Source: a virus
Length of the DNA: 64,000 nt
IMG/VR virus record: IMGVR_UViG_3300048919_000123
Span: 19,665 to 83,664 of that record
Reading direction: 5' to 3' (one strand)
The stretch's first letter is position 1. Each line of letters opens with the position of its first letter. Below, in pieces: positions 5,030-62,625 of this stretch. The notes under the pieces were generated by a model. It did no database searches, had not been told where the DNA came from, and saw only the letters and a program-made list of their open reading frames with translations. Made by a program: the position numbers and the translations under genes.

Positions 5030-5111
5030 TTGGGTCGTCCTTGGGTGGAATGTTCGGTAACTAGCGGCGTTACTCTAGCAAGAGCAACGCCGCAAGTCAC
5101 GACCCAAGGTC

Positions 5112-6170
5112 TTACGGGGTTGGGAGGTAGGTGATCGCCAGAACGCAAGGAACGTCGACGTTGGTGCCGATAGTGACCTTGCCAGCTTCCGCCACCAGAG
5201 TCATGGCCGACTTGTAGTCAGCGTTCTCGCCTTCGGCGTTGTTGGTCGGGGCCTGCGCCATCAGGTTCGGCATCTGGATGGTGAAGGTGCCTTCAACCGT
5301 CGAGATGGTGGCCTTCAGGCTCACACGCTTGTTGGTCATGTGAGTGTCGAGCACGGTCTGGTCGTAGTAGTAGATCTCGCCAGAGAACTGCACAGCGACC
5401 TTGCCCACGCCGATACCGGCCGCGAACTCGTGACCCAGACCGGACTGCTCACGGACGTTGTTCTGGATCTGCAGCGAGGCATCGCTCCAGGTAACTTCCA
5501 GCAGGTCGTCGTCAGCGTTGCGGATCTCGATGTTGGCCAGGTTGTTCGAGCTGTCAGCGATCTCGTAGTTGGCCGGAACCGCTTTCGAGATGGCCACCGA
5601 GCCACCCAGGCCATCAACACCGGCAATCGCGTTGCCGTAGTCGGCGTTGGCCGACATGGTGTTCGATTCCATGGTGATCAGCTCGCCGTCACCGAACTGG
5701 ATGGTGGCGTCGTTGATCAGGGTGCCGAAGTACCACTCATGGTCGAGGCGATCGGTAGACGCGGTGCCCTGGCGGACAGTCTTCTCGATCACCATGTACT
5801 GCTTCAGCTCACCGTCGGTGATGAACTTGCCGAGCAGTGGATCGGTGTTGTCGACGTCCTTCCAGGTGTTCATCATCGCGACCTGCAGCAGGTCGAGGAT
5901 CCAGTTGGTCGCGCCGAACTCGACAGTGATCGCACCGTTGGCGCTGCCCTTGGTGTTCTTCGAGCCGGAAGTGCGACGGTCACCGCGAATCGCAGTCGAG
6001 CTTTTCGGCTCTTTCTGCATCGCGAAACCTTCGGTTGTGAACGGGAGCAACTTCATCGGCACCCGGGAGGCGCCAACGAAATCAGATTTGCTGTCCAGGT
6101 TGCTGAGGGCATATGCCACCGACACCGAGGAACTATCGTTAAAACTCCGAACTTGTGGCATAGCCGTCAA
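5112..6170 (-). CDS. Major tail (tube) protein
   Basis: 352 aa, beta-rich, S.AIRGDR motif, synteny. Confidence 0.8.
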   Translation of the reverse strand: MTAMPQVRSFNDSSSVSVAYALSNLDSKSDFVGASRVPMKLLPFTTEGFAMQKEPKSSTAIRGDRRTSGSKNTKGSANGAITVEFGATNWILDLLQVAMMNTWKDVDNTDPLLGKFITDGELKQYMVIEKTVRQGTASTDRLDHEWYFGTLINDATIQFGDGELITMESNTMSANADYGNAIAGVDGLGGSVAISKAVPANYEIADSSNNLANIEIRNADDDLLEVTWSDASLQIQNNVREQSGLGHEFAAGIGVGKVAVQFSGEIYYYDQTVLDTHMTNKRVSLKATISTVEGTFTIQMPNLMAQAPTNNAEGENADYKSAMTLVAEAGKVTIGTNVDVPCVLAITYLPTP

Positions 6171-6619
6171 CTCCTTTGGACGTAAATTTCGAACTCAATG
6201 TTGATCACCCCACCATAGGCGGTGAATCCATGCAACGGCACCGGATCGGTAGGGGTGAACGTTCGGAATCGGATTCCGTTGACCGTCGCGTCCTGAAACC
6301 AATCGGCTACAGCCTCCACCTTGCGCCCGTACTTTACCTTGTCCCGCGGGGATTTGGTAAACAGCGAGATGTCCAGACTGCCTGTGACCCTACGCGGCGC
6401 CACCTGTGTCGGGCCGGCGCGGCGCGTGCGGTCAATGTCCAGCTCGAACAGCCAGAAGTCTTCGTTCTGTTCCAGCAGCACACCTGCGTCGTTAACGCTG
6501 ACGTCCAGCCCTTCGACAAAGTCGTAACCGAACAGCATGTCCGGAGTGACCTTGGTCAGCAGGTAGTCCCTCACCCGGACATCAAGATCGGTCAGCGATG
6601 ACAGCATAAAGTCGCTCAT
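6167..6619 (-). CDS. Putative tail terminator
   Basis: 150 aa, immediately upstream of tail tube, ATGA coupling. Confidence 0.6.
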   Translation of the reverse strand: MSDFMLSSLTDLDVRVRDYLLTKVTPDMLFGYDFVEGLDVSVNDAGVLLEQNEDFWLFELDIDRTRRAGPTQVAPRRVTGSLDISLFTKSPRDKVKYGRKVEAVADWFQDATVNGIRFRTFTPTDPVPLHGFTAYGGVINIEFEIYVQRS

Positions 6620-7125
6620 CGGTAGCTCTTCCTTACCTGGCCTGCGGTAATCCTGTTTTGAAAGATTCGCCGAACCTCTTCCACCGCGGCTTTACCTGCC
6701 TCCTCGATGTTGGCGTTCTCGCCGTACTCGCTACCCGGGTCGATGGCGTTGAAGAAGTAGAAGACCGTCTCTGGAGTTCGGCCAGCCACCAACTTTTCCA
6801 CCACCTCTCGCAATTCCTTGTCCCGCACAAACCGCTCGGTCAGCCTGGCATTCTTGCCCGCGTCACGGCGCCGACCTACCGGCGGCACACCCGGCCGGGT
6901 CGAGGTTTCCCTCAGATCCCGCAGTGTGCCGTAGCGCCGTGACGCCGGCCGGCTTCTGCCCTTTGCCGCCACCTGCCAGTGCACCGCGGCGTTGGAGGAG
7001 TCATGCTTGGTCACCTGCAGCGCCATCACCAGACCCGCCATAACCGCCTGGCGTATGGCCCGGCTGAACAGCGCACCCAGATCAACACTGAGTTCGTCCG
7101 CCTGCTTGGCGAACTTGCCCATCAC
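6616..7125 (-). CDS. Putative neck/tail completion protein (HK97 gp10-like)
   Basis: TKHDSSNAAVHW resembles the PVDTG.L..SW motif; synteny. Confidence 0.55.
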   Translation of the reverse strand: MMGKFAKQADELSVDLGALFSRAIRQAVMAGLVMALQVTKHDSSNAAVHWQVAAKGRSRPASRRYGTLRDLRETSTRPGVPPVGRRRDAGKNARLTERFVRDKELREVVEKLVAGRTPETVFYFFNAIDPGSEYGENANIEEAGKAAVEEVRRIFQNRITAGQVRKSYR

Positions 7126-8033
7126 GCCACCCTCAGGGTGTACTGCCGTGTGCCTGATTGCGTGGCCACCGATTTCACCTGACGCTTCAACCCGTTCAGC
7201 TCCAGCCAGACGTCCTTACCGGTGATGTCAATGCCGAAGGGCAGGTGCTCTGCCTCGAAATACACAGTCCGGTACGACTGAGTGTCCGTGGCCCAGAGGG
7301 CAGCGTCGGTCGACTTCTCCATGACCCCTGTGACGTTGTAGCTGACCTCACCGCCTTCCCATTGGTGCGTGGTGTTGTTCATCGTCCGCTTGCTGCCGAC
7401 GTGCAACACGAAGTCGCTGCGATAGTCGCCCTCGTGGTCAATACGCAGGGCAAAGAATCCGGAGTCGGCGAACGTATCCAGCACGCGGTACTTCACGTTG
7501 TGCAGGGTGATGAAGTCCCATTCTTGCGGCTGCACATTCAACGGCAGGTAGGCGTTGTAGCGCTCGATCCGCAGATCCGTGGTCTCGACTTCGTCGGTGC
7601 TGCTGAGGAACTCAGTGTCGATGTAGCTTTTGGCAAAGACCGTGTCGACCAGCCAGCCAGGATTCTCCGGCGGGCCCTGCACGACCTTGCGAGTAATTGT
7701 GGCCAGCCCAGAGCTTCCACCGGGCAGATCCGTTACCAGTTGCAGGATGGTCAGGCCAAGGTATTCCTTGCCGTGCCTAGCGTCCTTTCGGGTGGTGCCG
7801 AGGATGTAGACGTCGTGCGTGCCCGGGTGCCGAAACGTCAGGCTCTCCGGGAACACCACGTTGCTGTCGGTGAACAACATCCGACGGCGAGTTGGTTTGT
7901 TGAAGTTGCTGAGGAAGCGATCGGTCAAATCGATACGGCCAACGAACGAATCCGGCACCCAGGTCTCCGTCAGCGGATCCCAGGCTTCCATTTTCTCGTC
8001 GGCGTATTTCAGCGCGATCTTCTTCAGCTTCAT
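7122..8033 (-). CDS. Putative head closure/stopper protein
   Basis: 303 aa beta-rich; follows adaptor. Confidence 0.5.
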   Translation of the reverse strand: MKLKKIALKYADEKMEAWDPLTETWVPDSFVGRIDLTDRFLSNFNKPTRRRMLFTDSNVVFPESLTFRHPGTHDVYILGTTRKDARHGKEYLGLTILQLVTDLPGGSSGLATITRKVVQGPPENPGWLVDTVFAKSYIDTEFLSSTDEVETTDLRIERYNAYLPLNVQPQEWDFITLHNVKYRVLDTFADSGFFALRIDHEGDYRSDFVLHVGSKRTMNNTTHQWEGGEVSYNVTGVMEKSTDAALWATDTQSYRTVYFEAEHLPFGIDITGKDVWLELNGLKRQVKSVATQSGTRQYTLRVA

Positions 8034-11366: not shown

Positions 11367-12239
11367 CTCGAATTTCCTTTTATCGCCAGTAGTGTTTGCG
11401 GACGCGCCGCTGTTAATGAGGTCATCCAGAGATGCAATCCGGTCGACCAGCCCATTTTTCACGGCCTTCGCTGCGAAAAAGGTTTTACCGTCAGCCCAAT
11501 CTTTGTAGTCGTCGAGACTCACCTTGCGCTGCGCGGAAATGTGGTTGAGGAAGAAGGCGTTGGTCTCCTTCAGATTTTCCTGAAGGTACTTCTTGTCCGA
11601 CTCGCTCAGTTCCTCGTAGGGGTTGCCCACCGCCTTGAACTCACCTTCCTTGAGGACGGTGAATTTCATGCCGAAATTTTCTTCGGTGTTGGCCAGGGTG
11701 CGCACCACGGCGATCACGCCAATGGAGCCGACTTCGGCCATCTTGCTGGCTGTCACCCGGTCAGCGCTGGACATGATCCAGTAGCTGGCAGAGAACGACG
11801 CGCTGTCAGTGTGGGCGCGGATCTGCATGCCATTCTGTTGCATGCGGGCCATCTGCTCAGTCACGGTGTTCAGGCCGCTGACCGCGCCACCGCCACTGTT
11901 GTGGTCGAAGATCACGTCGGTGTGGCCCGACTCAGCCAGGATCGCCAGCGCGTCGTTGATCGCCTCGTAGCTGGTGATCTCACCGGGGAACCACTGGTGG
12001 TAGCGGCGGTACGACGGGGTCAGAGATCCGTGGATCTTCAGCACCGCAGTTTCACCTACTTTTTCCAGCAGATACAGGCCCTTACGGCGAGTATTTACAC
12101 CGAAATCTGGGTCGAGTTCTTCGCGGTCTTCGTCATACGGGTAGTTGGAGTACGCCTCTTTGTCGAAGGTGTACTTCATCTCGTAGCTGCACCACGCCTC
12201 GTAGGCCTTCTCGTTGCCCAGCCAAATTTCTACTGCCAT
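10770..12239 (-). CDS. Prohead protease, S49 (SppA/ClpP-like), with C-terminal scaffold
   Basis: NSGGG, SASYW and GSIGV motifs; AAGGAG RBS before ATG 12239; coiled-coil C-terminus. Confidence 0.9.
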   Translation of the reverse strand: MAVEIWLGNEKAYEAWCSYEMKYTFDKEAYSNYPYDEDREELDPDFGVNTRRKGLYLLEKVGETAVLKIHGSLTPSYRRYHQWFPGEITSYEAINDALAILAESGHTDVIFDHNSGGGAVSGLNTVTEQMARMQQNGMQIRAHTDSASFSASYWIMSSADRVTASKMAEVGSIGVIAVVRTLANTEENFGMKFTVLKEGEFKAVGNPYEELSESDKKYLQENLKETNAFFLNHISAQRKVSLDDYKDWADGKTFFAAKAVKNGLVDRIASLDDLINSGASANTTGDKRKFEMKISEAKLAQIEAGAAPKDVLTKAELAQYEKDVAALQEAADKEAAAQKEKDDAEAERLAKEAADKENGDDPEVTGTGFDAKTLTNALKENGKLEAKVEDLTERLAKAESALTEAKGQTDTLIVVAQQAVKKLQVATGSPQVEKNSASEIITQFNDLQNKMAKLFPTEQKSKDTPIEEASQPLASGLRQKVTQLNAAKK

Positions 12240-12249
12240 GCCAGGCTCC

Positions 12250-13713
12250 TTATTGGTCTGCACCACCGGTCTGTGCCGGGGTGTCTGGCGCCAGTGCCGC
12301 GCCGGTCGATGATGTGCGATCGGTTGCCGTCGCGTCGGAGGCAGCCTTGGCGTAGAAGTGGGTTCCCGCCAGCAAAGCCTGCAATCCTTGAGGCCGGATG
12401 CCGAGTTCCCAGCAAGCGTGCGCGTCGTTGATCACACCAAAGCTGAGCAGCTCCAGCACGCGCTTCTGGCGAGTGCCGAGGTAGGCTTCCAGCTCGATCT
12501 CCGGACGCAGGTTGATCGGTAAAAATTCGAAGGCGACATAGCCGTCTACGCCATACAGCCGGCAGGCCAGGGTCAGCGCGCGGGACATCACCTCTTCCAC
12601 CGGCGGGCGAGTGCCTTGCACCACCTGCAGGTAGATCAGCGTCTCGGCATTGGACAGACCCTGGCCGCCCGATGCGCGCAGCCCGGACACAGAGGCCGGG
12701 GTCTTCAGCGAAGCACCGAGCATGTTGCCCAGCGTGGTCAGCATCGAGCTGTAGTCGGCCTTGTTGCCGCCGGTGTCCTTGACGTCGTAGACCACGCTGT
12801 CGTAGGTCACCACCGCATCTTCCGGCTCCAGGCCCGCCAGTGCTTCCTGCACTTCCTGCAGCACCTGGTTGAACAGCTCGCCCATTTTCTTCGGGTCGTT
12901 GCGGGTCTTCTCGTCGGCAGCCTTGCTGATCTTCTCGCTGACAATGGTCGCGATCAGACGGCTATGCCCGGTGCGGTTCAGCGCCCGGTGCATGTCTTCG
13001 ATGAACCCGTTGAAGTTCATGACCTGTGACAGACCCGGGCGCAGCAAGCTGACCGAGTAGGCTTCGTCTGGGTTGCGGTTATGTTCGGAGATGAACACCG
13101 TGGGGATGTTCAGAACAATGTCACCGCCGTCCTGAGTGGGGTAGCGCCCTCCTTGGCCATCAGCTTCCCATTCCACTGTCGAGTAACCGATCGGCACCAG
13201 CCGCTCGGGCCCGAACTCTGCATCCAGCACAAGCTCAAGACCACAACCCCCTGTCGTGATCACATCCGTTTGAGTGCTCGACAACAGCGACTGCATCCCT
13301 GGCTTATCGTTGTATCCCTTGCTGTAATCATGCAGCGTCGAGAATCGATCCATGATGCTGTAAGCCAGTGCCATGACCTCGGTGCTCATCATGCCCGTGG
13401 AGTCATAGCCGGCGAGTCTGAAGCCTGCACCTACCGAGATGGCCGCCATCGAGTTCGCCGCCGAGCTGAACATCCCGTCTTCACGGGTCAGCAGGCGGAT
13501 GATTTCGTTGACGTCGGTGCGGGAGCTGATGTTGTTGATCGCGTTCTGGTTGAACGTTTTCAACGTGTTGGTGATTGCAGACCCTTTTTTCTGGTCTGAG
13601 CCTGGGCGCTTGGCACGCGCTTTACCTGCGAGATTTCGGGTCGGCAAGATCACGTCGGCACCCGTCGCGGCGTACCTCGATCCTTTCGTGCCCGGTGTCT
13701 GCTTGGTAGCCAT
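12250..13713 (-). CDS. Portal protein
   Basis: 487 aa between terminase and protease. Confidence 0.8.
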   Translation of the reverse strand: MATKQTPGTKGSRYAATGADVILPTRNLAGKARAKRPGSDQKKGSAITNTLKTFNQNAINNISSRTDVNEIIRLLTREDGMFSSAANSMAAISVGAGFRLAGYDSTGMMSTEVMALAYSIMDRFSTLHDYSKGYNDKPGMQSLLSSTQTDVITTGGCGLELVLDAEFGPERLVPIGYSTVEWEADGQGGRYPTQDGGDIVLNIPTVFISEHNRNPDEAYSVSLLRPGLSQVMNFNGFIEDMHRALNRTGHSRLIATIVSEKISKAADEKTRNDPKKMGELFNQVLQEVQEALAGLEPEDAVVTYDSVVYDVKDTGGNKADYSSMLTTLGNMLGASLKTPASVSGLRASGGQGLSNAETLIYLQVVQGTRPPVEEVMSRALTLACRLYGVDGYVAFEFLPINLRPEIELEAYLGTRQKRVLELLSFGVINDAHACWELGIRPQGLQALLAGTHFYAKAASDATATDRTSSTGAALAPDTPAQTGGADQ

Positions 13714-13743
13714 GCCGTATCGTCTTCCCTAGAGATGGCGCGA

Positions 13744-13773
13744 GTTTAGTTGGCCAACGGCCTGAAATACAAG
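13744..13773 (-). promoter_or_regulatory. Putative sigma70-like promoter for portal/head operon
   Basis: TTGTAT-N18-TAAACT on minus strand; palindromic motif copies just upstream. Confidence 0.45.
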
Positions 13774-13829
13774 GGTTCTTTTCTCGCTACTTAACGCGAT
13801 ACTTGAAGTACATAGGGATAACTCGCTGC

Positions 13830-15623
13830 TTAGCGAGTTATCCCCTTGCGTTTAGCAAACCCGAACATTCCCTGCAGGACGTGCTGGATCTCACCCTCTT
13901 CCGGCTTTTCCACCACAGCGCTGCCGAGTTTCACCTTCGACGTGCCTGGCATCACGCCGACCACGCTGTGGTCTTCGAACTGGTCGCAGGCGATGGCCGC
14001 GATGTTGGCGTAGTTCAGCGCGTGCACCCAGTGATCCTGCTTGTTGGTCTTGATGAACTTCTCGGTGATCTGCCCATCGTTGCCGCGCTCGCGCACCTTC
14101 TTGGTGGTCTCCAGATGCTTGAACAGCTCGATGCGCAAATCATCCCTGTGCGGGTAGTGGCACTCGCCCGCGTTGTGCTGGTTCAGCAGCAGGGTCAGGG
14201 TCTTCGTCCGGTCAGCGTTGATCACCTCGCCCTCGGTCTTCTCCACGATCGGCAGGAAGCCTGGCAGGTTGCTGACGTAGACCACCGCCTGGATGCCGTG
14301 GCGCGCGTTCACCAGCATGTTCACCAGTGTGATGTCGGGGCCGGCGTCGATGCACAGCTTGCGCATGTTGAAGAAGTCGTAGCGCTCCAGCACCTTCTCG
14401 TAGGCGGGGTCGCTTTTGGTGTTGGCGATCTTCTCCATCCACACGACGTGCCAGCCACCCGGCACCTTCACCTTCACCACGAAGTGCAGGATCTTGCCGA
14501 TGTCCATGCCGCCGACGGTGCCGCACGGGATGATGCACTGGTTGAAGATCCACAGGTCGACGTCACAGGTCTTGGTGCGGTGCTCGGCGGTGACGATGAA
14601 GCTGTTTTCCGAGTCGGAGAAGGGCAGCCCGAGCACGAAGTTGAAGAAGTCGGACTTCAGCGGGTAGGCCTCGAACTGGGCGAAGATGTTCGGCGGCGTG
14701 TTGTACTTCGGCACGTCCCACGGGTTCACCTGGTAGCTGTGGTTCCAGTTGTCCGGCTTCTTCGCCACCCACTGGCGCCGCGCCGGGTTGACCAGCGATG
14801 GCCACAGATCCTTGTGGCAGGACGGGCAGCGCATCCACGCTGTCTGCACGTCGATGCGTTCGTCATCGAGGTTGTCCCGGCCGAACTCCAGCAGCGACTT
14901 GTCCCAGCCTGGCAGGATCATATCTTCGAGGAAACTCGGGTTCACCCAGGTCTCGCAGCGCTCGCACTTGCACATGTAGTAACGCTGGTCGCCGGCCTGA
15001 AAGCCGACGTCGATGCCGAAGCCATCCACCGTCGGCGTGGAGAATCGATAGCGGTAGCCACGGTTGCCTTGGGCATCGACGGTCTTGGCGTGTCGGATAC
15101 GGGAGTTCAGCTTGCCGAGCACGACCTCGTTGGAGAAGTCGGTTTCGTCGGAGATGATCATCTCGGCCGGTACGGAAATCGCCGCGTTGGCGCCGTAGGT
15201 GCCGATGATGTACAGGAAGTTGCGGCCGATCTTCTTCATGCCCGCCGCGTCGGAGCCGGCCTTGACCAGCGCCGAGTAGAACTCGCTCTGCTCCACGGCG
15301 CCGTCGATCCGGTCTTTGGAAAACTTGGTGGCCATCTCCTTGGTCGGCTGGCTGAACATCACCCGGATGTTCTTCATCACCGCAAGGATCGCCAGGGTCT
15401 TCTGCACCATCATCTCGGTCAGGCCGACCTGCGAGCACTTGCGCACGTCGATCCGCTGCGAGGTGTCCTTCACGATATCGATCTGAAATTCGTGGTCGTC
15501 GAAGGAGAACTTCTCCCCCTCGACCATCCCGTATTTCAAGATGGTCTGATCCAGTTCCTTCATGCCCTCTTCGCGGCTGAGGGCCATTCTGAACCGTTCT
15601 GCTACCGATCCCTGGTCGCTCAA
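13830..15623 (-). CDS. terL: Terminase large subunit, lambda GpA family
   Basis: KCSQVGLTE (Walker A-like), ISDETD (Walker B), FSTPT, two CxxC pairs, GMDIG and DHWVHA nuclease motifs; TTG start with AAGGA RBS. Confidence 0.92.
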   Translation of the reverse strand: MSDQGSVAERFRMALSREEGMKELDQTILKYGMVEGEKFSFDDHEFQIDIVKDTSQRIDVRKCSQVGLTEMMVQKTLAILAVMKNIRVMFSQPTKEMATKFSKDRIDGAVEQSEFYSALVKAGSDAAGMKKIGRNFLYIIGTYGANAAISVPAEMIISDETDFSNEVVLGKLNSRIRHAKTVDAQGNRGYRYRFSTPTVDGFGIDVGFQAGDQRYYMCKCERCETWVNPSFLEDMILPGWDKSLLEFGRDNLDDERIDVQTAWMRCPSCHKDLWPSLVNPARRQWVAKKPDNWNHSYQVNPWDVPKYNTPPNIFAQFEAYPLKSDFFNFVLGLPFSDSENSFIVTAEHRTKTCDVDLWIFNQCIIPCGTVGGMDIGKILHFVVKVKVPGGWHVVWMEKIANTKSDPAYEKVLERYDFFNMRKLCIDAGPDITLVNMLVNARHGIQAVVYVSNLPGFLPIVEKTEGEVINADRTKTLTLLLNQHNAGECHYPHRDDLRIELFKHLETTKKVRERGNDGQITEKFIKTNKQDHWVHALNYANIAAIACDQFEDHSVVGVMPGTSKVKLGSAVVEKPEEGEIQHVLQGMFGFAKRKGITR

Positions 15624-15628
15624 AGTCG

Positions 15629-16057
15629 TTATTCCTTTGGAGGTCTTGGCTGAGGCTCTCGGTGGAGAATGCCGGTGGGTTCACCCATCAGGGCGAAGGG
15701 TGCTTTACTCAAGAATCCGCCGCAGGCGTACCCTTCCTTTAGCTTTTGCGAGATGAAGTCGATGTCGAGCTGCGACACACTTGACCGGTGTCTGCTCAGG
15801 ATCTCGGTCACTTCGGCGACGTCGTCCTGCATCTTGCGCTGTTTGATCTCGTTCAGCTCGTAGGACGCCACCTTGGCTTTGAGCATCGCCATCTGCTCGG
15901 ACATCGCCTGAAGGATCTCCGGGGTGATCTCCTGGTACTGGGTGCCCGCGTCGATGGTGTCGCTGTAGCGCCGCCCCGGGTAGATAATTGGCCCGACCTC
16001 GACGAACAGCTTGCGACCGAACAGCCCGCCGGTCTTGAATCGCCCTGTCCATTTCAT
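15629..16057 (-). CDS. Hypothetical protein
   Basis: MKWTGRFK..., ATGA-coupled to upstream gene. Confidence 0.65.
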   Translation of the reverse strand: MKWTGRFKTGGLFGRKLFVEVGPIIYPGRRYSDTIDAGTQYQEITPEILQAMSEQMAMLKAKVASYELNEIKQRKMQDDVAEVTEILSRHRSSVSQLDIDFISQKLKEGYACGGFLSKAPFALMGEPTGILHREPQPRPPKE

Positions 16058-16692
16058 TTGAGTTCCCTCGCGGCTTTGCGCTCTTCTTCCTCGAGGAGCA
16101 GCAGCACCTCGTCCTGTTTGTCCCGGGGCAGCGACTCCACCACCTTCATCAGGCTCATCTCCAGGCGCTGCACGCGAGCCAGGGTGATGACCTTCGGCAG
16201 ATCCTTGACCAGCATGCCGATCACTTTCATGGACATATTCAGCGCGTCCTTCACGCCGATGTCCAGACCGTGGTTGTGTTTGGCAGTGCCGTCCGGGTTC
16301 ACCACTCGTTGGCACACCGCGTCGATCAGCGCCAGCTGCTGCTTGAACGTGACCAGCACCGACGCATCCAGCCCGGCCATCTGCGCCACCAGCGCGCGCT
16401 TGCTGCTGGCCGGCATGGCTTCGATCAGGTGCAGCAGCACCGGCTCGGGCAGCATGTCGTTCTTCATCTGCATGCAGATCAGTTCGATGGCGTCGAACGC
16501 TTCCCGGTCGCCCCATTTGAGCGTGGCCATGTTCGTGACTTCCACCGGCCGCGCCATCGGCTTATACGTCTTCGGGTGCACGCTGTCTGGCGCCAAGGCT
16601 TCAGGGGTCGGATCCCAGCCAGGGTCTCCCTCACCGAGGGTGATGCCTGGCGTGGCTGGATCAGATGTCGTGGCAATGCGTCGGCTGGCCAT
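16054..16692 (-). CDS. Putative terminase small subunit
   Basis: 212 aa helical protein upstream of terL; synteny only. Confidence 0.45.
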   Translation of the reverse strand: MASRRIATTSDPATPGITLGEGDPGWDPTPEALAPDSVHPKTYKPMARPVEVTNMATLKWGDREAFDAIELICMQMKNDMLPEPVLLHLIEAMPASSKRALVAQMAGLDASVLVTFKQQLALIDAVCQRVVNPDGTAKHNHGLDIGVKDALNMSMKVIGMLVKDLPKVITLARVQRLEMSLMKVVESLPRDKQDEVLLLLEEEERKAARELK

Positions 16693-16982
16693 CAGTAATC
16701 AACCTCCACCACCAGCAGTTTGGAGGGGGTGAAGTGCAGCAGCTCTCGGCTCGGGATCACCACTGGGCTGCCCTGGATTGGCTTGGTGTTGACCCGGGCC
16801 TTGTGGTGGCGCATCTCGAACTTGCCGAACTCGCGCAGGGTGAGTTTGTCGCGGTCGGTGGCCAGCTGAACGATTCCCTGCAGGACGGTTTCGACGTAGA
16901 CCTTCGCTTCCTTCTTGGTGATCTGGCAGTTTTCGGCCACCAGCGCGATCAGGTCTTGGATGTTGGCAGTTGGGCTTGGCAT
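16692..16982 (-). CDS. HU/IHF-family DNA-binding protein
   Basis: LTLREFGKFEMR...AR and F.PSK.L signature; 96 aa. Confidence 0.9.
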   Translation of the reverse strand: MPSPTANIQDLIALVAENCQITKKEAKVYVETVLQGIVQLATDRDKLTLREFGKFEMRHHKARVNTKPIQGSPVVIPSRELLHFTPSKLLVVEVDY

Positions 16983-17164: not shown

Positions 17165-17172
17165 AGTGTGTC

Positions 17173-17370: not shown

Positions 17371-17371
17371 C

Positions 17372-17477: not shown

Positions 17478-17533
17478 CGAAACCGTCCTGCCCACTCGCA
17501 ACTCGCCTTGGAGTAGCCCGGAGATTAGCGAGA

Positions 17534-18196
17534 TTACTTGCAGTCGTCAATATCTCGTTCGGCTTGCGAGCGCTCATCAATGACTGCCCCGGCCAGCACT
17601 TGTGCCTGGCTGCGCGAGTCGATCTCACCGTCAGTGATCTTCGCTTGGCTGATCGTGCAGTTCTGCCGGCCGTACTCGCTCAGCGAGCCGTCGGCATTGA
17701 AGGCCTTTCCTATTTCGAACTCGAAGGGCTTCACGATCACCTGGTGCGCCAGCGAGGATTCTTCCACCGGACGCTCGGACACCGACCCACTGAACGCCGA
17801 TCGCAGGATATGCAGCCCTCCAATGATCGAGTTCCGCGCCAGCCAGGCAGCGGACTGATCCACACCGTCGTACTTGTCGAGCATCTCGATATCGGTGTAC
17901 AGCGTCCGGAACTTTTCCTCGAGCTCGTCCACCCGCTGGCGGCGTACTTCGTGGAAGCGCGCACGGTCGCTCAGATCCGCTTCGCCGATCAGATGGTCTG
18001 GCAGCCGGCCCGACTCACGGAGTTCTTCACCCAGTGGCGTGTCGCGGATCGCCGTGGCGATCTCGTTCAGCCCGGTCTTCACATCTTCCAGGCTGATACC
18101 CACCTCAAACCCCGAGGCGTAGGTTTGCCCGCTTTCGCTGGTGCCGAGCACGATTCGGCCCACGATCTGGTCAGGTCGGTCATTGGATTGGCTCAT
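17534..18196 (-). CDS. Hypothetical protein
   Basis: ~220 aa, AAGGAG RBS before MSQSNDRP. Confidence 0.75.
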   Translation of the reverse strand: MSQSNDRPDQIVGRIVLGTSESGQTYASGFEVGISLEDVKTGLNEIATAIRDTPLGEELRESGRLPDHLIGEADLSDRARFHEVRRQRVDELEEKFRTLYTDIEMLDKYDGVDQSAAWLARNSIIGGLHILRSAFSGSVSERPVEESSLAHQVIVKPFEFEIGKAFNADGSLSEYGRQNCTISQAKITDGEIDSRSQAQVLAGAVIDERSQAERDIDDCK

Positions 18197-23662: not shown

Positions 23663-24946
23663 ATGAACTTTCAGCTACTTTCCGCCCGAGCTGTAGAGGA
23701 GCGTCTCCAGCCTAAGCCCCGTCGCCCCTCAAAGCCCCGTCTACCAAGGCTTGCGAGCCTCGGCTGCTACCTGCCCGCCGGTGACATCAAGGCCCATTTC
23801 CGCGCCCTCGGTGCCCACCTCGACCCCGACAGCCCTGAAATGGAGGCTGCCGCCGCGGTGTTCGCCAGCTCCCTGCTCGACGCACTCGGCGAGGCCAGCA
23901 AACCCGAACGCAGCCTCATTGGCCCGGCCCGCTACAGCGACCGCATCCTCGCCAAATACTGCCGCTGGTTGCAGAAGTCGGCGTTCGGGCTGCCTGGCGT
24001 GGATCTGGTCAGCCCCGCGCTTGTGCCGTACCTGCTCGGCGGCATCCCGATCAAGGCTGTCGAGGATCTGGCGCACCGGGCGCTGGAGGTCATGGACTTC
24101 TTCCCCGACCCCCTCAGCGACTACACGCTGGGCAAGTTCGCTGCGGTCGGCTTCGGCGCGCGGCCGCACATTCACCACGACGTGGAGGTCATCAAGCGCT
24201 TCTCCAACTTCAGTTTCCGTCAGGAGTTCATCCTCGACCTGCCGCGCACCGGTTCCTACAGCCGGCTGCTGATCGACAGCGGCGCTTATGGCGCGTCCGC
24301 CCGGCGCAAGATCGCCATGATCCAGCCCCAGATCATCGCCGAGGTCGAACAGCTGCTCGACCCTGAAAGCGGTGAGATGGGAGAGGTGGCAGCCCACGGC
24401 CGGGAGCCGCTGAAGGTCACGGCGTTGATGTTCAATCGCGCTGTGCGGCGGGTGTTCGAAAGACCCTGGGCTGAGCTGGACTTGTCCGGTGACCCGGCCG
24501 ACTTCCATGCCGATGCCGAGGTGCTGCTCGCCCGCCGACTGATCGTTCATTTGACGTCAAAGGAACGGCAGCGCGAGAAGGACACGGTCAGCGCTCAGAC
24601 GTTGGTCGGAATGTCGCTACTTACCGGCATTTCGCTGGCCAACTGGACGGAATTTGCCGTCTATGATCTACGCAGGCGCGGGGAGACTTTCCTCACTGCC
24701 GAGGCCATCGAGGCGGCGATCCGCATCGCCGAGGTGTCGCCGTATTTCCGCTGCGCCGAGGCGATGACCGAAGCGGCGACGGAAATCAAGTTCGCCTCCA
24801 TGGAGAAGGCGGCGTGGGCACGGAGATTGCGTTCTGGACGCCAGCCACTGTGGAGCACCAGCGGTCGTTTCTACCAGAACGGCCTTGACGGTGACGGGTT
24901 GCCGACGTTCAAGCACAAGCCGTACCGCCTCTCGGATGATGGCTAG
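23663..24946 (+). CDS. Hypothetical protein (427 aa)
   Basis: Long ORF with coding-like codon bias; no recognised motif. Confidence 0.75.
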   Translation: MNFQLLSARAVEERLQPKPRRPSKPRLPRLASLGCYLPAGDIKAHFRALGAHLDPDSPEMEAAAAVFASSLLDALGEASKPERSLIGPARYSDRILAKYCRWLQKSAFGLPGVDLVSPALVPYLLGGIPIKAVEDLAHRALEVMDFFPDPLSDYTLGKFAAVGFGARPHIHHDVEVIKRFSNFSFRQEFILDLPRTGSYSRLLIDSGAYGASARRKIAMIQPQIIAEVEQLLDPESGEMGEVAAHGREPLKVTALMFNRAVRRVFERPWAELDLSGDPADFHADAEVLLARRLIVHLTSKERQREKDTVSAQTLVGMSLLTGISLANWTEFAVYDLRRRGETFLTAEAIEAAIRIAEVSPYFRCAEAMTEAATEIKFASMEKAAWARRLRSGRQPLWSTSGRFYQNGLDGDGLPTFKHKPYRLSDDG

Positions 24947-32369: not shown

Positions 32370-32440
32370 GAGGAGTAATCTCGGCAACCAGCGACAAAAG
32401 TACAACTCAAAGCACAAACCCAACCAGAAGGAAATGTCCC

Positions 32441-38214: not shown

Positions 38215-38260
38215 TTGACAACCCAACCGCTTAGCGTGGGATACTTCGCCAATTGGCGAG
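38215..38260 (+). promoter_or_regulatory. Putative sigma70 promoter overlapped by palindromic motif
   Basis: TTGACA(38215), TGgGATACT extended -10 (19-bp spacer, atypical), TTCGCC-AATT-GGCGAG at 38245. Confidence 0.5.
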
Positions 38261-38292
38261 GTATCTGCGTGCCTTTAACACAGAGGTGCAGC

Positions 38293-51527: not shown

Positions 51528-51748
51528 TGGAAAATTACGCCGACCCCCTCGATCGTTCAGTAGCTGAGCAGGACATGATCCTGCAGGAGCAGCTACGCCT
51601 GGCCCGCAAGCCTGTCCACACCTTGGCCTACATCGGCAAGTGCCACAACTGCGGTGAACCGTTAGCGGATCCTCAGCGATTCTGTGACGCGGATTGCCGC
51701 GACGACCACGCCAAGATCCTTCGCAGCAGGTCTCAGAGGGTGTACTGA
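51524..51748 (+). CDS. DksA/TraR-like C4 zinc finger protein
   Basis: ADPLDRS N-terminus; CHNC...FCDADC. Confidence 0.7.
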   Translation: MMENYADPLDRSVAEQDMILQEQLRLARKPVHTLAYIGKCHNCGEPLADPQRFCDADCRDDHAKILRSRSQRVY

Positions 51749-53439
51749 TGAGCAGAAGTCTTCACGACTTGATGCTCGAAGTCGGGGTGGGCAACCACCC
51801 CGGCTGGTTCGACCAGATCAAACTCCCCCACTGGCCGATGAAGCATCAACTGGACATGATCAAGATCTACCCCTGGAACGACCGTTACGGGGATTTCTCC
51901 GAGCCAGGCGCAGGCAAGACGTACCCGGCTCAGGTTCATGCAATCATGATGGCGGCGATGGGTAACCGCGTCGTCTTCACCACACTGCCCACGCTGATCC
52001 CGCAGTTCATGGCGGAGTTCGAGCTGTTTTTCCCGGGCATCCATCAACACCTGCGCATCGAAGACCTCGACTGCAGCGCGGACAAGAAGAAGAAAAAAGA
52101 GGCGCGGTGGGACGTCGAAGGCTGGCCAGATATTCTGGTCATGTCCTACGACATCTACCGCATGTACAACGCCAAGCATGCACGGAAAAAGATCGGAAAT
52201 AATCTGTGGAAAATAAGGAATATCAACAAGATAGGGACAAAAGAAGAGTTCTCTACCAGCTATTTCATTGAGCAAGGCGACGACAAGGGTGAACCCCGAT
52301 TCCCCAAAGCTCAGCCGTACACGAAGGATGGTCGCATGATCAATCCGAAAAACGGCACGGCGCCGAACCCCAAGCAGATGCTCCTCTACCACCAGAATTA
52401 CCACGTCCAGTTTTTCGACGAGGGTGACGCGCTGTGCGGCATGGACTCGATTCTGTCGGAATCGGTGTACGAGATGAGCATGCGGCTGAAGGACGAGGTG
52501 GCGATCTACGTGCTGACCGGCACGCCGATACCGACCCACCTGCACAACGCCTACGGCCTGATCCGGCTGATCAACCCAAGCGCCTACCTGAACAAGGCAG
52601 CGTTCATCCGCCAGCACTGTGAGCAGGAGGAGTTCAAGGTTCCGCTGCCCAACGGCAAGAGCAAGACGATCAAGCAGATCGTCGGCTACAAGGACGTCGA
52701 GAAGATCGAGGCTTCCCTGTGGAAGAACGCTCACCGGGTGCAGAAGCGCGACGTGATCCAGATGCCGGAGCCGATCATCAGCGAGGTGCCGGTCAGGCTG
52801 TCCGGACGCCACCTGAAGCTGTACCAGACGGTGATCCGGGATCGGTTCGCTGTGTTGGGTGATCGGGTTCTGGCGCCGGACAGCGCCAGTGCCCTGCGCC
52901 ACATGGCCCTGCAGCTGATCAGCTGCCCCACCAAGTTCGACCCGACCCTGGTGGAGTGCGATGAGCTGGCCAAGGCCACCGGCGAGCTGGTGGAGACGAT
53001 CAACCCCGGCCCCGGCCGCAAGCTGATCATCTTCGCCTTCTACCGCCAGGCCATTGAAGGCCTCGCCATGCAGTTCGCTCACCGCAAGGTGGCGATCGTC
53101 TACGGCGAGATACCGGACAGGCAGGCGCAGCTGGACAAATTCCAGAACGATGATGAGTGCGACACGATCATCATCCAATGGGTGGCCGGAGGCGCCGGGC
53201 TGAACTTGCAGGTGGCTGGGTACATCATCTTTTACGAATGCCCAACGTCGCCCAAAGCGGCGAAGCAAGCGATTGCACGGGCTGACCGTAAAGGGCAGGT
53301 AAACATCGTCAACGTGTACTTCATGCGGGTCTTGAGGACGCTGTCCGACAAGAACTTCAGGGCGCTGTTGGCGAACGAAGAAAGCAACAACCGGGCGATC
53401 AAGGACAAGCATGACTTGCTCCATGAATTACTCGGTTGA
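51748..53439 (+). CDS. SNF2-like SF2 helicase
   Basis: EPGAGKT, DEGD, LTGTP, GGAGLNLQ and QAIARADRKGQ motifs. Confidence 0.88.
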   Translation: MSRSLHDLMLEVGVGNHPGWFDQIKLPHWPMKHQLDMIKIYPWNDRYGDFSEPGAGKTYPAQVHAIMMAAMGNRVVFTTLPTLIPQFMAEFELFFPGIHQHLRIEDLDCSADKKKKKEARWDVEGWPDILVMSYDIYRMYNAKHARKKIGNNLWKIRNINKIGTKEEFSTSYFIEQGDDKGEPRFPKAQPYTKDGRMINPKNGTAPNPKQMLLYHQNYHVQFFDEGDALCGMDSILSESVYEMSMRLKDEVAIYVLTGTPIPTHLHNAYGLIRLINPSAYLNKAAFIRQHCEQEEFKVPLPNGKSKTIKQIVGYKDVEKIEASLWKNAHRVQKRDVIQMPEPIISEVPVRLSGRHLKLYQTVIRDRFAVLGDRVLAPDSASALRHMALQLISCPTKFDPTLVECDELAKATGELVETINPGPGRKLIIFAFYRQAIEGLAMQFAHRKVAIVYGEIPDRQAQLDKFQNDDECDTIIIQWVAGGAGLNLQVAGYIIFYECPTSPKAAKQAIARADRKGQVNIVNVYFMRVLRTLSDKNFRALLANEESNNRAIKDKHDLLHELLG

Positions 53440-53465
53440 CAGAGGGTTGGGCGTCTCTGTATAAA
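53436..53465 (+). promoter_or_regulatory. sigma70 promoter
   Basis: TTGACA-N18-TATAAA. Confidence 0.65.
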
Positions 53466-53544
53466 ACAGCCTGCGCTGGCGGATTCCTCGCTAGTTGCCG
53501 ATGAAAATGACGATGAAACGAAATTAAATTAACTCAGAGAGATA

Positions 53545-55197: not shown

Positions 55198-55485
55198 ATG
55201 CCCATTCAGCCACTGAACGACCGTGTAGTTGTACGCCGCAAAGCGGCGGCGAAAGAAACCGCCAGCGGCATCATCCTGCCTGGCGAACCGGAGAAACTGA
55301 ACCAGGGTACGGTGGTTGCCGTTGGCCCTGGCCGCCGTGAGAGTGGTGAGGTGGTTCCACTCTCGGTGAAGGTGGGCGACACCGTGGTGTTCGGCCCCTA
55401 CTCCGGCAGCAACGTCGTCAAAGTCGACGGCGAAGACCTGCTGGTGATGGCTGAGGCGGAGCTGCTCGGCATTATCACGCAGTAA
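55198..55485 (+). CDS. groES: Co-chaperonin GroES
   Basis: [27 protein letters not shown] and VKVGDTV motifs. Confidence 0.95.
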
Positions 55486-61500: not shown

Positions 61501-62069
61501 TCCTGTTGGGCGTGACCGGCTTGGCCAGGGCCGGGAAAGATCACGCATCTGCCTACCTCGGCCGGCACATGGCGCTGCATCAGTACGCCTTCGCGGAGTC
61601 GCTGAAGACCATGCTCAAATCGGTCTTCGGCGACCATTTCCACAAAGGCGATCGCTCCGAAATCTGCCCGGAAACCTGCAAGTCGTACCGGGTAATGATG
61701 CAGACGCTGGGCACCGAGTGGGGCCGGGAGATGATGAACCCCCAGATCTGGGTCAACCTTGTGGCGCGGCGCTGGAAAGAAATCAACGCGGTGCCGGTCA
61801 TCAGCGGCATGGTGCTCAGCGACGTGCGTTTCGATTCCGAGGCCGAGTGGATCAAGCTCAACGGTGGGGTGATCATCGAGATCGTCCGCCCTGATCTGGA
61901 GACGCCAGGCTTGGTGGAGAAGGCGCTCAGCGCGGTGGGGATCCCCGGCCATGTAAGCGAGAAGGGCATCAACCGCGACTACATCAGCCACACCGTGGTC
62001 AACGACGGCTCGCTGGCCGACTTCGACATCAAGCTGATGGGGTTGATCGACCAACTCAAGGAAGGCTGA
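61497..62069 (+). CDS. Deoxynucleoside monophosphate kinase
   Basis: GLARAGKD, QTLGTEWGR, DVRFDSE and H.SE motifs. Confidence 0.92.
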   Translation: MILLGVTGLARAGKDHASAYLGRHMALHQYAFAESLKTMLKSVFGDHFHKGDRSEICPETCKSYRVMMQTLGTEWGREMMNPQIWVNLVARRWKEINAVPVISGMVLSDVRFDSEAEWIKLNGGVIIEIVRPDLETPGLVEKALSAVGIPGHVSEKGINRDYISHTVVNDGSLADFDIKLMGLIDQLKEG

Positions 62070-62071
62070 CC

Positions 62072-62593
62072 ATGGCTGCCAGCATCGGGAAAGTGTTCGA
62101 GAAGGAGATGATTCAGGTGTTCAAGATGCTGTTCGAGCAGCGCCTTGTCAGCTACCACCGCCTTTCGGACTCCGGAGCCGCCGGCTCCATCGTCGCTGAG
62201 CAGCCAAGCGATTACCTCCTCGGCCTTCCTGCGGGGTGTCAGAACCTGCAGGACGGCCAGAGGCTGTGTTTCCTCGAGGTGAAAGCCAGTGAGGAGCACA
62301 GCACGATGCCAAAAGCCGCGGTGCGGCCGGCGCAGCGTGGGGCGATAGCCCGGTTCAGGTTCCTGCTCGGCCTGCCCTACTACATCATGTTCTGGGATGC
62401 GCAGAATGGTGTGATCCAGCTGTGGGACGGCATCGCCGTGCACGACACAGCGCGGATCGACAAACACCACCTGCTGGCCACCTGGCCGAACGTTGGGGTG
62501 ATCAACAAGCTGCAGCGACAGCGCGTGGTGGATCTGATTGCCGACTACTTCCGCATACCGACGTATGCGGATACACTGAACAAATCCCGCTAA
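62072..62593 (+). CDS. Putative Holliday junction resolvase (PD-(D/E)xK, RecU-like)
   Basis: G..FE, PSDY, EVK and Q motifs. Confidence 0.7.
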   Translation: MAASIGKVFEKEMIQVFKMLFEQRLVSYHRLSDSGAAGSIVAEQPSDYLLGLPAGCQNLQDGQRLCFLEVKASEEHSTMPKAAVRPAQRGAIARFRFLLGLPYYIMFWDAQNGVIQLWDGIAVHDTARIDKHHLLATWPNVGVINKLQRQRVVDLIADYFRIPTYADTLNKSR

Positions 62594-62625
62594 GTAGCGG
62601 GGTTTCTAATTTTGGGGTGTGGACT

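Follow-up and report, generated by a model that had tools for sequence, protein, structure and literature searches.

A two-fold-symmetric DNA word at gene junctions of a lytic Pseudomonas phage and its relatives

Eleven degenerate 16-bp palindromes near gene boundaries raised the question of whether they belong to one family, and whether such a family would act as DNA or as RNA. The initial annotation had read them as a single regulon served by a dimeric DNA-binding protein. The window, i.e. the whole stretch of DNA analysed, was 64,000 nt of an 83,664-bp genome with an intergenic fraction of 6.4%. All 11 16-mers were present, with both coordinates and sequences correct, and 11 of 11 were intergenic or on a stop codon according to our home-made gene calls. 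The neighbours named for them (the Acb2/Tad1-hairpin ORF, tRNA-Gln, the HU-like gene, the NMT1/TAXI-like ORF and the portal promoter) were also correct. The sites and the features around them are listed below.

5046..5075, minus strand: site 5053, between the tail-tube and tail-chaperone genes; matrix 19.2 bits
13743..13772, minus strand: sigma-70-like portal promoter, TTGTAT-18-TAAACT, score 12.9
13776..13805, minus strand: site 13783 (B2), a weak copy; matrix 13.0 bits
13815..13844, minus strand: site 13822 (B1), the best copy, over the TerL stop codon
17099..17128, minus strand: site 17106, CCCGC-TAATCT-CCGAG, with the -10-like TAATCT at the centre
17510..17550, minus strand: site 17517 and its -35, sigma-70-like TTGACG-17-TAATCT, 12.9 bits
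18589..18618, minus strand: site 18596, after the canonical terminator 18664-18626
17164-17136, 18664-18626 and 21493-21520: canonical terminators, with stems unrelated to the motif followed by at least five T
24606..24635, plus strand: low-scoring copy inside a 427-aa ORF; matrix 13.7 bits
24944..24973, plus strand: site 24951, GATTC-CTCGCT-ATTG-AGCGAG-GTTCC, beginning on the stop codon of the 427-aa ORF
32373..32402, plus strand: site 32380, a weak copy; the NMT1/TAXI-like 303-aa ORF starts 45 nt downstream
38238..38267, plus strand: site 38245, 11-bp arms GATACTTCGCC/GGCGAGGTATC, conserved in 7/8 genomes
53436..53465, plus strand: sigma-70-like promoter, conserved TTGACA-18-TATAAA, 13.6 bits, upstream of site 53487
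53476..53509, plus strand: site 53487 (site I), fitting the family in its left half only, GATTCCTCGCT
62579..62608, plus strand: site 62586, AAAUCCCGCU-AAGU-AGCGGGGUUU then CUAAUUUU, a terminator-like 10-bp stem

The 16-bp consensus, CTCGCT-N4-AGCGAG, was not enriched by itself. With up to three mismatches it gave 45 matches in the window, versus 47.67±7.41 in 100 dinucleotide shuffles, 72 of which reached 45. Site 5053, four mismatches from the consensus, was outside these 45. Near-perfect copies (at most one mismatch) numbered four versus 0.34 expected, a count reached in 0 of 100 shuffles; one of the four (34178) was in coding DNA. Over the whole genome, intergenic versus coding matches were 4 versus 1 at up to one mismatch, 2 versus 9 at exactly two and 7 versus 42 at exactly three.

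Behind the 11 sites was a longer family, RGAWACCYCGCTA-NN-TAGCGRGGTWTCY, made of two opposed RGAWACCYCGCTA half-sites with 2 bp between them. On the query genome, a 30-nt matrix derived from 32 sites in seven other genomes, with the query left out, gave 13 matches of at least 12 bits, versus a mean of 0.28 (maximum 2) in 50 dinucleotide shuffles. The 13 consisted of the 11 sites, one match outside the window (genome position 3196) and one inside an ORF (24613). The internal site of the 427-aa ORF was matched in 8/8 genomes, and its conservation may come from the coding sequence alone.

The fixed 4-bp spacer of the initial annotation held. In eight genomes, CYCGST-Nn-ASCGRG gave 18 intergenic and 4 coding matches with n=4, and none between genes at any of the remaining 12 lengths in the range 0–12. 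The pattern YCGSTANNTASCGR had 18 sites in four relatives versus 0 for the reversed-pattern control. The flank was also conserved, GATTCCTCGCT occurring exactly three times, at 18591, 24946 and 53482.

In phages Lana, PMBT3 and UAntarctica and in four metagenomic relatives, sites recurred at the orthologous junctions, with 12–13 degenerate copies per genome. The eight genomes together had 73 intergenic and 28 'coding' matrix matches, some of the latter within doubtful home-made ORF calls; the intergenic share was 6.1–6.6% in each of the four genomes with a printed fraction. Several sites lay between core genes of invariant order (resolvase-ligase, TerL-portal and helicase-next gene). The family is confined to one clade of lytic Pseudomonas siphophages, that of Lana and PMBT3, and in this phage and its relatives it is a two-fold-symmetric DNA word of about 28 bases at about 12 gene junctions. 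The 16-bp observation was confirmed as real overall. What stood of its earlier interpretation was a lineage-wide dyad element with fixed spacing at gene boundaries; what fell was the single class, the 11 sites being a mixed set (terminator-like, -10-centred, shifted-register hairpin and hairpin-abutting). The dual activator/repressor behind an early-to-late switch, put forward initially, is a hypothetical role.

The existence, symmetry, fixed spacing and conservation of the family were accompanied by independent variation of its halves. Both halves had the same information profile out to -13/-14, with a flank pattern, G-A-W-A-C, that does not pair, and the right half was conserved at least as well as the left. 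Identity between halves at variable positions was 406 over all 66 sites, versus 375.7±10.3 for independent draws from the consensus; with one site per orthologous group, z was 1.2–1.9 (p 0.04–0.14). The halves matched at W positions -12 and -11 in 30 and 33 of 68 sites, versus 34.4 and 28.2 expected. On the sense strand, G·U versus A·C was 6 versus 17 at position -7 and 6 versus 18 at -2. The GATTC-bearing half was upstream at 24946 and 53482, and downstream at 18591 and genome position 3216. With the better half on either side, the sites thus have no set direction relative to transcription.

Because the half-sites varied almost independently and shared a non-pairing flank pattern, we tentatively favored reading the family as the operator of a putative homodimeric DNA-binding protein, at somewhat less than even chances, over RNA hairpins. 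Near-independent deviation of the halves fits a protein better than a stem, as proposed initially. The operator reading was also based on the excess of leave-query-out matches, the spacing fixed at four, the lack of preference for G·U over A·C on the sense strand and the free orientation of the GATTC half. The earlier remark that several variants cannot pair as RNA was borne out, in that 6/11 sites folded no better than shuffles (z above -2.3). Five of those six were conserved at their junctions (5053, 13783, 17106, 32380 and 53487, each with a matrix match at the same junction in at least one relative), which again pointed to an operator. So did the position of 17106 and 18596 directly behind canonical terminators, where little read-through RNA is expected and a new promoter would be needed, and the promoter-like hexamers near the site centre in 8/11 groups.

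The surroundings of the sites differed. Site 5053 in the sense orientation had a half-site-quality match, GCCGCTAGTTACCGAA, and adjoined a different conserved hairpin, GGCGTTgCTCTtgctAGAGtAACGCC, and a promoter-like GTGACT-17-TAGAGT (score 10.9). B2 was 10 nt upstream of the -35 of the portal promoter, a block conserved in 14/14 aligned sequences, and 39 bp from B1, a spacing kept in 5/8 genomes. At 18596, a promoter-like TTGAGG-17-TATCCT ended 11 nt before the site centre, and the right arm with its flank, AGCGAGGAA, provided the Shine-Dalgarno sequence of the Acb2-like ORF (18585-18352), at a distance of 10 nt.

In an operator of this kind, the CGC triplets at about ±5 would be one helical turn apart on the same DNA face, and the A/T-rich centre and flanks (±10 to 12) would present the minor groove on that side, as is usual where a dimer bends the DNA it binds. 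The sites stand at module starts, on or beside promoter-like sequences and ribosome-binding regions, and the simplest effect of a bound protein would be to occlude initiation or to block elongation there. Sites 13822, 38245 and 62586, with near-perfect halves, probably also serve as terminators or attenuators. That a protein binds, the direction in which it regulates and what factor it is are all matters of inference. The protein may be phage-encoded with a fold missed by Pfam; the phage HU-like protein or a host factor would be less likely binders.

The initial annotation had recognised no cognate regulator, and our searches agreed: the DNA-binding proteins found with Pfam (E up to 1), NCBIfam and PDB sequences were only the HU-like and LytTR proteins, neither fitting the role, a result that goes against the operator reading. 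LytTR, formerly a candidate, was missing from 4/7 motif-bearing relatives. The HU-like protein was conserved in 7/7 relatives, as was a DksA/TraR-like zinc-finger protein (51524-51748).

Less probably, and in our judgment at about one chance in four, the elements act as RNA, as inter-cistronic hairpins in long polycistronic transcripts. Their roles would be termination (weak or factor-dependent), attenuation, processing, or stabilisation of 3' or 5' ends. A quasi-symmetric hairpin might be read by a phage protein, the shared sequence reflecting common descent or one RNA-binding factor. Three sites had stable hairpins, with folds matched by 0/200 shuffles: 13822, a perfect inverted repeat with 13-bp arms as annotated (-24.2 kcal/mol, z -7.8); 38245, upstream of a 116-aa ORF and a C5-methyltransferase gene (-20.6 kcal/mol, z -5.6); and 62586 (-14.0 kcal/mol, z -4.6). 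The last, over the resolvase stop codon and 24 nt before the ligase start, looks like a terminator. It had an A-tract upstream and GUUUCUAAUUUU downstream, and its U·G pair forms only in the sense strand, with U-A instead in G002 (alignment A2, eight genomes).

At the TerL-portal junction, a clear stem of at least 9 bp was present at or just after the B1 position in 12/17 sequences (11/16 relatives). These included the motif-less distant relatives L015, L017, L165 and L166, and in L017 and L165 it was a canonical terminator; in PMBT3, G004 and L010 the stem was in a shifted register and reached 3–5 nt beyond the consensus. Pairing itself is under selection at this position. Site I had a conserved hairpin in another register, CTGGCG-GATTCCT-CGCTAG (53476-53494; consensus CTRGYG-GATTCCT-CGCTAG), covering roughly +10 to +30 of the RNA that the 53436-53465 promoter is predicted to start. 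The PMBT3 counterpart of this promoter is listed as a predicted promoter in supplement 3 of PMC8421299. Of the 13 predicted pairs at site I (alignment A1), one was changed on both sides and four on one side, the hairpin keeping its pairing. Some compensatory changes were present at site I, and in UAntarctica at B1 and at K, the latter with one. Moreover, 6/12 sites started at most 10 nt from the upstream stop codon, as for 3' RNA elements, and there was a weak orientation bias, most centres reading A-N in the sense direction. A two-fold-symmetric consensus could suit a dimeric RNA-binding protein as well, as in the LicT/RAT complex. The junction stem, the compensatory changes, the stop-codon proximity, the strand bias and this last point all go against an operator.

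On the other hand, the six poorly folding sites go against RNA hairpins. Among them were 5053 (-3.9 kcal/mol in the motif register, z -1.3), 17106 (z -0.5), 17517 (z -0.1) and 32380 (z +0.1), the last three forming no hairpin. The folds of 24951 and 18596 were -13.5 kcal/mol (z -2.95) and -9.2 kcal/mol (z -2.9). Complementarity of the arms at variable positions was close to the independent expectation, A·C outnumbered G·U, and the flanks on both sides were unpaired. The loop had a constant length of 4 nt, A...T ends and U-A as its closing pair, and its sequences (AAGU, AACU, AAUC and similar) are not known to belong to the stable tetraloop families. A U-tract-like run was found only at 62586, two sites stood directly behind strong terminators, and an Rfam search yielded tRNA only.

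It is improbable that the elements are promoter parts, in which a -10-like hexamer and a GC-rich discriminator serve the host RNA polymerase, perhaps tuned by the DksA/TraR-like protein with its full conservation, and the second arm is incidental. The best case was 17517, where the -10 of the promoter is the 'palindrome' centre, with a CCGGG discriminator, upstream of tRNA-Gln (17450-17372); TTGACR-17-TAAnnT was found at this junction in the query, G001, PMBT3 and Lana. Site 17106, directly after terminator 17164-17136 and some 125 nt ahead of the HU-like gene, has the same TAATCT centre, in a promoter-like TTTCTT-17-TAATCT of 7.7 bits. Groups K, G and H had TAACCT, TAATCT or GATACT in the left flank, and in eight K-group sequences (TAACCT, TAATCT, TATTCT, TACTCT) T-A and the final T were constant and the inner positions varied. 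The sigma-70 promoter overlap noted initially was convincing only for some sites: over all site groups the -35 score was 1.73 versus 1.37 bits at control intergenic positions, i.e. at control level, which also goes against the operator reading. In 8/11 groups the hexamers placed the site centre at about -10 to +9 of the predicted start, an overlap owed mostly to the A/T-rich flank of the motif itself. The offset of the -10-like hexamer from the centre was inconsistent among groups (+3, -6, -7, -11, -16), and a directional promoter explains neither the conservation of the right half nor the free orientation of the better half.

Least probable was an action on DNA apart from transcription, as cassette-exchange junctions or as nuclease, HU-compaction or replication sites: variable cargo was flanked (the terminator-motif-SD order before 18585 was kept in seven genomes versus 0/7 orthologues for the query's Acb2-like ORF; 32380 and the NMT1/TAXI-like gene co-occurred in the same 3/7 relatives, Lana, G001 and G002; 17106 and 17517 bracketed a tRNA region of varying content) and the HU-like protein is universal among the relatives, but sites also separated core genes of constant order, recombination linkers require identity and neither dyad symmetry nor fixed spacing, and HU-family binding, with kinks about 9 bp apart at IHF and TF1 sites, does not match the motif layout.

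Among known systems, intrinsic (Rho-independent) terminators resemble 62586, and less so 13822 and 38245, in GC-rich stems after a stop codon, and the TerL-portal junction of more distant relatives is closed by canonical terminators; most copies differ in lacking a U-tract, and 6/11 lack a stable stem. The intergenic RNase III processing sites of T7, about 10 conserved sites at module boundaries in the long transcription units of a lytic phage, are likewise conserved, structured and intergenic. Their stems are irregular and long, at least about 20 bp, whereas only the PMBT3 copy of 38245 approaches such length and most copies cannot pair.

Cluster O mycobacteriophages carry a 17-bp dyad repeat, 5'-TGTTCGGNNNCCGAACA, in at least 34 copies (PMC4351075). 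It too is an inverted repeat of fixed spacing that is specific to a lineage and scattered over a siphophage genome, mostly intergenic or near gene starts, with a centre of no meaningful orientation relative to transcription, and an orphan with neither regulator nor function attached. It differs in its invariant 7-bp arms and 3-bp spacer, versus 12–13 degenerate copies here, in which half-sites of about 13 bp are separated by 2 bp and some copies are strong hairpins as well; host and sequence are unrelated.

The stoperators/operators of Cluster A mycobacteriophages (L5 gp71 family) are many repressor sites over the genome, in promoters and short intergenic gaps, with a proposed block of both initiation and elongation (PMC9283540). 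They are asymmetric 13-mers, monomer-bound and strictly orientation-dependent, in an immunity system of temperate phages. Here, on the other hand, the site is symmetric, its orientation is free and no repressor is recognisable, and PMBT3 is described as virulent (PMC8421299). Stoperators offer a working model of the way in which about 12 sites at gene junctions could exert an effect.

All eleven 16-bp palindromes listed in the initial annotation were present at their positions in the window, and they are named here by their starts (5053, 13783, 13822, 17106, 17517, 18596, 24951, 32380, 38245, 53487 and 62586). Their consensus, CTCGCT-N4-AGCGAG, was not in excess over shuffled controls at three or fewer mismatches (45 matches in the window vs. 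47.7 ± 7.4), but near-perfect copies were (4 vs. 0.34 expected). Matches were concentrated in intergenic DNA, which makes up 6.4% of the genome (4 intergenic vs. 1 coding at up to one mismatch, 7 vs. 42 at exactly three); every intergenic label here and below rests on a home-made gene caller. Site 5053 has four mismatches to the consensus, and thus lies outside the three-mismatch set. A consensus this loose carries no meaning as a 16-bp word.

The query phage genome is 83,664 bp long with a G+C content of 60%, and the window is its bases 19665–83664. Its relatives are the Pseudomonas phages Lana, PMBT3 and UAntarctica (TerL identity 64–75%), with further ones among IMG/VR and metagenome contigs. 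Seven whole genomes were compared with it, namely these three phages and the full-length contigs G001–G004. A search of metagenome contigs with the portal protein gave eight loci, only three of which (L163, L165 and L166) were apparently new. The 22 runs listed for 12500–19500 were all DNA, mostly from root and soil metagenomes. The main features, in window positions, are as follows.

1–19.3 kb, minus strand: structural genes
5112–6161, minus strand: tail tube gene
12250–13713, minus strand: portal gene
13830–15587, minus strand: TerL gene
16692–16982, minus strand: HU-like gene
17450–17372, minus strand: tRNA-Gln
From 20.2 kb onward, plus strand: early genes without known function and the replication module

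A GroES/Cpn10 gene was also seen at 55198–55485 on the plus strand (Pfam E 3e-27), with orthologues in none of the seven relatives.

The real word exceeded 16 bp. The sequence GATTCCTCGCT was found three times exactly, and alignment of the sites gave the consensus RGAWACCYCGCTA-NN-TAGCGRGGTWTCY. The strict pattern YCGSTANNTASCGR occurred three times in the window (0.02 expected) and at 18 sites in G001–G004, where the reversed control gave none. Between -14 and -1 the left and right halves agreed in their consensus and in the information carried at each position (66 sites in eight genomes), and the shared half-site profile extended to -13/-14, including the A/T-rich flank G-A-W-A-C. The spacer was indeed fixed at 4 bp, as had been claimed: 18 intergenic matches were found at this length, and none at each of the 12 other lengths between 0 and 12. 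A k-mer comparison of intergenic with coding DNA was dominated by A/T-rich words containing stop codons and added little. The observation is confirmed, with a longer refined consensus, and the eleven sites are a mixed set; the interpretation given in the initial annotation is supported in part.

The element was found at the same junctions in the relatives. These were the TerL–portal, tail tube–chaperone and resolvase–ligase junctions, the regions upstream of the HU-like gene and of the tRNAs, and positions that follow the 427-aa ORF, precede the 116-aa ORF and the methyltransferase, or follow the helicase. One more conserved site lies outside the window, at genome position 3196, upstream of an SbcC-like gene. 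At the TerL–portal junction, two copies spaced 39 bp apart were present in five of the eight genomes. A matrix made from 32 sites of the other seven genomes matched 13 places in the query genome (0.28 in shuffles): the eleven sites, genome position 3196, and 24613, inside an ORF. Since orthologous sites are homologous, this result is a measure of conservation, and the sites cannot count as rediscovered independently. The distant relatives L015, L017, L165 and L166 (portal identity 72–78%) gave no matrix matches in 11–13 kb each, and the element therefore appears specific to the Lana/PMBT3 clade.

Segments of 36 nt from the sense strand were folded as RNA, with z scores taken against shuffles, and this separated the sites. 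Five gave hairpins.

Site 13822: stable hairpin, -24.2 kcal/mol, z -7.8
Site 38245: stable hairpin, -20.6 kcal/mol, z -5.6
Site 62586: stable hairpin, -14.0 kcal/mol, z -4.6
Site 24951: moderate hairpin, -13.5 kcal/mol, z about -2.9
Site 18596: moderate hairpin, -9.2 kcal/mol, z about -2.9

The other six (5053, 13783, 17106, 17517, 32380 and 53487) folded no better than shuffles, which bears out the proposal that several variants cannot pair as RNA.

The neighborhoods of the sites also differed. Site 62586, AAAUCCCGCU-AAGU-AGCGGGGUUU followed by CUAAUUUU, runs across the resolvase stop codon, and its terminator-like 10-bp stem was kept in eight genomes. Site 17106 lies immediately behind a canonical terminator (17164–17136) and has the 12-mer CGCTAATCTCCG in common with site 17517. 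The latter is the center of TTGACG-17-TAATCT, which scored 12.9 bits on a sigma-70 scale built from approximate hexamer frequencies, so that this and all promoter scores below are approximate. TTGACR-17-TAAnnT was also found upstream of tRNA genes in G001, PMBT3 and Lana. The minus-strand segment 17550–17130 makes up one compact unit, with the promoter (17550–17522), tRNA-Gln, a non-coding stretch of about 200 nt and the terminator 17164–17136. The segment of about 115 nt that separates site 17106 from the start codon of the HU-like gene (16983–17098, minus) is well conserved in four phages, e.g. cggggcaagaagccctagccgac, and may represent a leader or else a small RNA with structure.

Site 53487 fitted the family in its left half only. 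The conserved pairing there, CTRGYG-GATTCCT-CGCTAG, is in a different register from the palindrome, lies approximately 10–30 nt downstream of a conserved TTGACA-18-TATAAA, and survives one two-sided and four one-sided changes. Directly after this hairpin is an 8-codon ORF (ATGAAAATGACGATGAAACGAAATTAA; 53499–53525, plus), with a similar one in Lana; the PMBT3 counterpart is longer, so the ORF may be due to chance. Site 5053 adjoins another conserved hairpin and the promoter-like GTGACT-17-TAGAGT.

Whether the elements act as DNA sites or as RNA stems has support on both sides. The initial annotation had favored a dimeric DNA-binding protein; the dyad symmetry and fixed spacing agree with this, but selection for a hairpin is clear at a few sites. 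At the TerL–portal junction, a clear stem of at least 9 bp was present in 12 of the 17 sequences compared. The motif itself forms this stem in the query, G001, G002, UAntarctica and L016, and in PMBT3, G004 and L010 the stem is in a shifted register and runs on for 3–5 nt past the consensus. L017 and L165, both without the motif, have a canonical terminator at this junction, and L166 has an unrelated hairpin. Compensatory changes were found in UAntarctica at the TerL stop codon site (13822 in the query) and in the orthologous group K, and at six of 12 sites the element starts no more than 10 nt from a stop codon.

On the other hand, the two halves vary almost independently where they are variable. 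Half-to-half identity at the variable positions was 406 vs. 375.7 ± 10.3 expected over the 66 sites, a small excess of complementarity, and z was only 1.2–1.9 when each orthologous group contributed a single site. At -12 and -11, the W positions, the halves matched at chance level. Half-site variants include CGGTA in UAntarctica. On the sense strand A·C was commoner than G·U, the reverse of the bias expected from a stem in sense RNA. The better half was found on either side relative to transcription, and two sites are directly behind strong terminators.

In our reading the palindrome family is defined at the DNA level. The CGC triplets at ±5, with A/T at the center and at ±10 to 12, make a layout that would fit binding to one face of the helix, with bending. 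Copies with two good halves would inevitably fold as RNA. At some junctions such copies may serve as terminators, or terminators may have replaced them in other lineages.

The copies had also been placed at promoters, and this held for some sites. Promoter-like sequence was clear at or beside sites 17517, 53487, 13783, 18596 and 5053. Nine distinct intergenic promoter-like sites in the genome scored at least 10.5, four of which touch the family (5072, 13743, 17522 and 53465). In 8 of 11 groups the site center fell at about -10 to +9 of the start predicted from the best nearby promoter-like match. Over all groups, however, the -10 score was high (3.59 vs. 0.51 at control intergenic positions) whereas the -35 score was near the control (1.73 vs. 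1.37). This control shows that the signal comes from the A/T-rich flank of the motif itself, so that only some of the sites have a solid promoter overlap. A promoter scan of 12000–26000 under a strict rule returned no sites. The activator/repressor switch ascribed to the palindromes is a guess. CTAAAC was rejected as a shared promoter word, since among the genomes checked the portal promoter alone recurs. Within the spacer of that conserved promoter (13749–13766, minus) lies a short palindrome, GGCCgttGGCC, of which relatives have variants, GCCCattGGGC among them.

As a family, the palindromes lack the marks of intrinsic terminators. Stems were strong at three sites, moderate at two and no better than shuffles at six, and only 62586 has a U-tract (GUUUCUAAUUUU), the other sites having at most three T. 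A terminator scan of 12000–26000, which contains seven of the eleven sites, listed 13815–13844 as the sole family site. The palindrome matched no RNA family in Rfam, which at the gathering threshold returned only tRNA-Gln in the window. Its GC stem between GAAAC and GTTTC may resemble a host CRISPR repeat, as in RNA anti-CRISPR mimics made of a solitary repeat unit. On the idea of a host operator, an exact scan of genome contigs with CTCGCTANNTAGCGAG was uninformative, giving at least 120 matches in unrelated taxa, as by chance.

No cognate regulator had been recognized in the window, and this stood in searches of Pfam (E 0.001 and E 1), NCBIfam and PHROGs. The two recognizable DNA-binding domains belong to the HU-like protein (in all seven relatives) and the LytTR protein. 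The latter, an earlier candidate, is in only three of the seven and is therefore not the cognate factor. A PDB sequence search with four conserved unknown proteins yielded no regulator, and the ESM Atlas gave only "Glyoxalase_8" clusters (0.87 or lower) for the basic 65-aa ORF at 36927–37121. The acidic 116-aa ORF after site 38245 (pI 5.0) looks ill-suited for DNA binding. A DksA/TraR-like zinc-finger protein is conserved. Proteins of the DksA/TraR family may modulate promoters with GC-rich discriminators, and by analogy this one could do so here.

Before the Acb2-like gene (18352–18664, minus), the order of terminator, -10-like hexamer, motif and Shine-Dalgarno sequence was kept in seven genomes, the query and six relatives, with a different gene behind it in different genomes. 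The query gene, an Acb2/Tad1-hairpin ORF (Pfam E 5e-18), has orthologues in none of the seven relatives. This slot hints at the place where accessory or anti-defense genes are inserted and at the way in which their expression is achieved. The best sigma-70-like promoter of the genome, TTGACA (18748–18743)-17-TAATCT (18725–18720) on the minus strand (15.2 bits), lies nearby. About 88 nt past it is a canonical terminator, with its stem at 18664–18636 and a T-run to 18626. Judged from these signals, the two could delimit a small RNA in the gap that separates the 164-aa ORF from the Acb2-like ORF.

A fuller proposal, which we hold to be rather unlikely as a whole, is that the palindromes are operators of an orphan global regulator, with a fold outside current profiles, at about a dozen promoters and junctions of a virulent phage. 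One of them would be a conserved terminator-promoter-operator-Shine-Dalgarno slot in which accessory or anti-defense genes are exchanged, occupied here by Acb2. The strongest copies would also serve as terminators, and one sequence would thus be read as both DNA and RNA.

Regulation in phages of the Lana/PMBT3 group is almost wholly unannotated, and the query phage has few recognizable promoters. The 28-bp word, conserved and present wherever a module starts, is a concrete handle on the order of gene expression in an 84-kb lytic phage, and it can be used as bait for the regulator. The practical value is modest, because the clade is small and environmental and similar orphan repeats are known elsewhere.

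No published description of the element was found in the accessible literature on Lana, PMBT3 and Lanavirus/Maxrubnervirus, which held nothing further of relevance, and no publication was found for UAntarctica. The available text of the PMBT3 paper gives three predicted promoters and seven terminators, the element not among them; one of these promoters is the TTGACA...TATAAA upstream of the 53487 counterpart (PMC8421299). The available text of the Lana paper mentions no promoter, terminator, motif, palindrome, hairpin or regulation.

Among known systems, the stoperators of Cluster A phages are described, in the text available, as asymmetric, orientation-dependent and tied to lysogeny (PMC9283540). 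The palindrome fails membership on these grounds. Stoperator orientation follows transcription, whereas the site here is symmetric, with the better half on either side. Stoperators serve the immunity repressor of temperate phages, whereas Pfam and PHROG scans returned no repressor or integrase family here, and PMBT3 is virulent according to the available text of its description (PMC8421299). As described there, the Cluster A stoperators offer a mechanism for the junction sites (PMC9283540). From the accessible part of its description, the 17-bp dyad repeat of Cluster O mycobacteriophages, an orphan as well, is the closest analogue (PMC4351075). Orphan intergenic repeats are a kind already known in other phage groups, and this palindrome is a further case.
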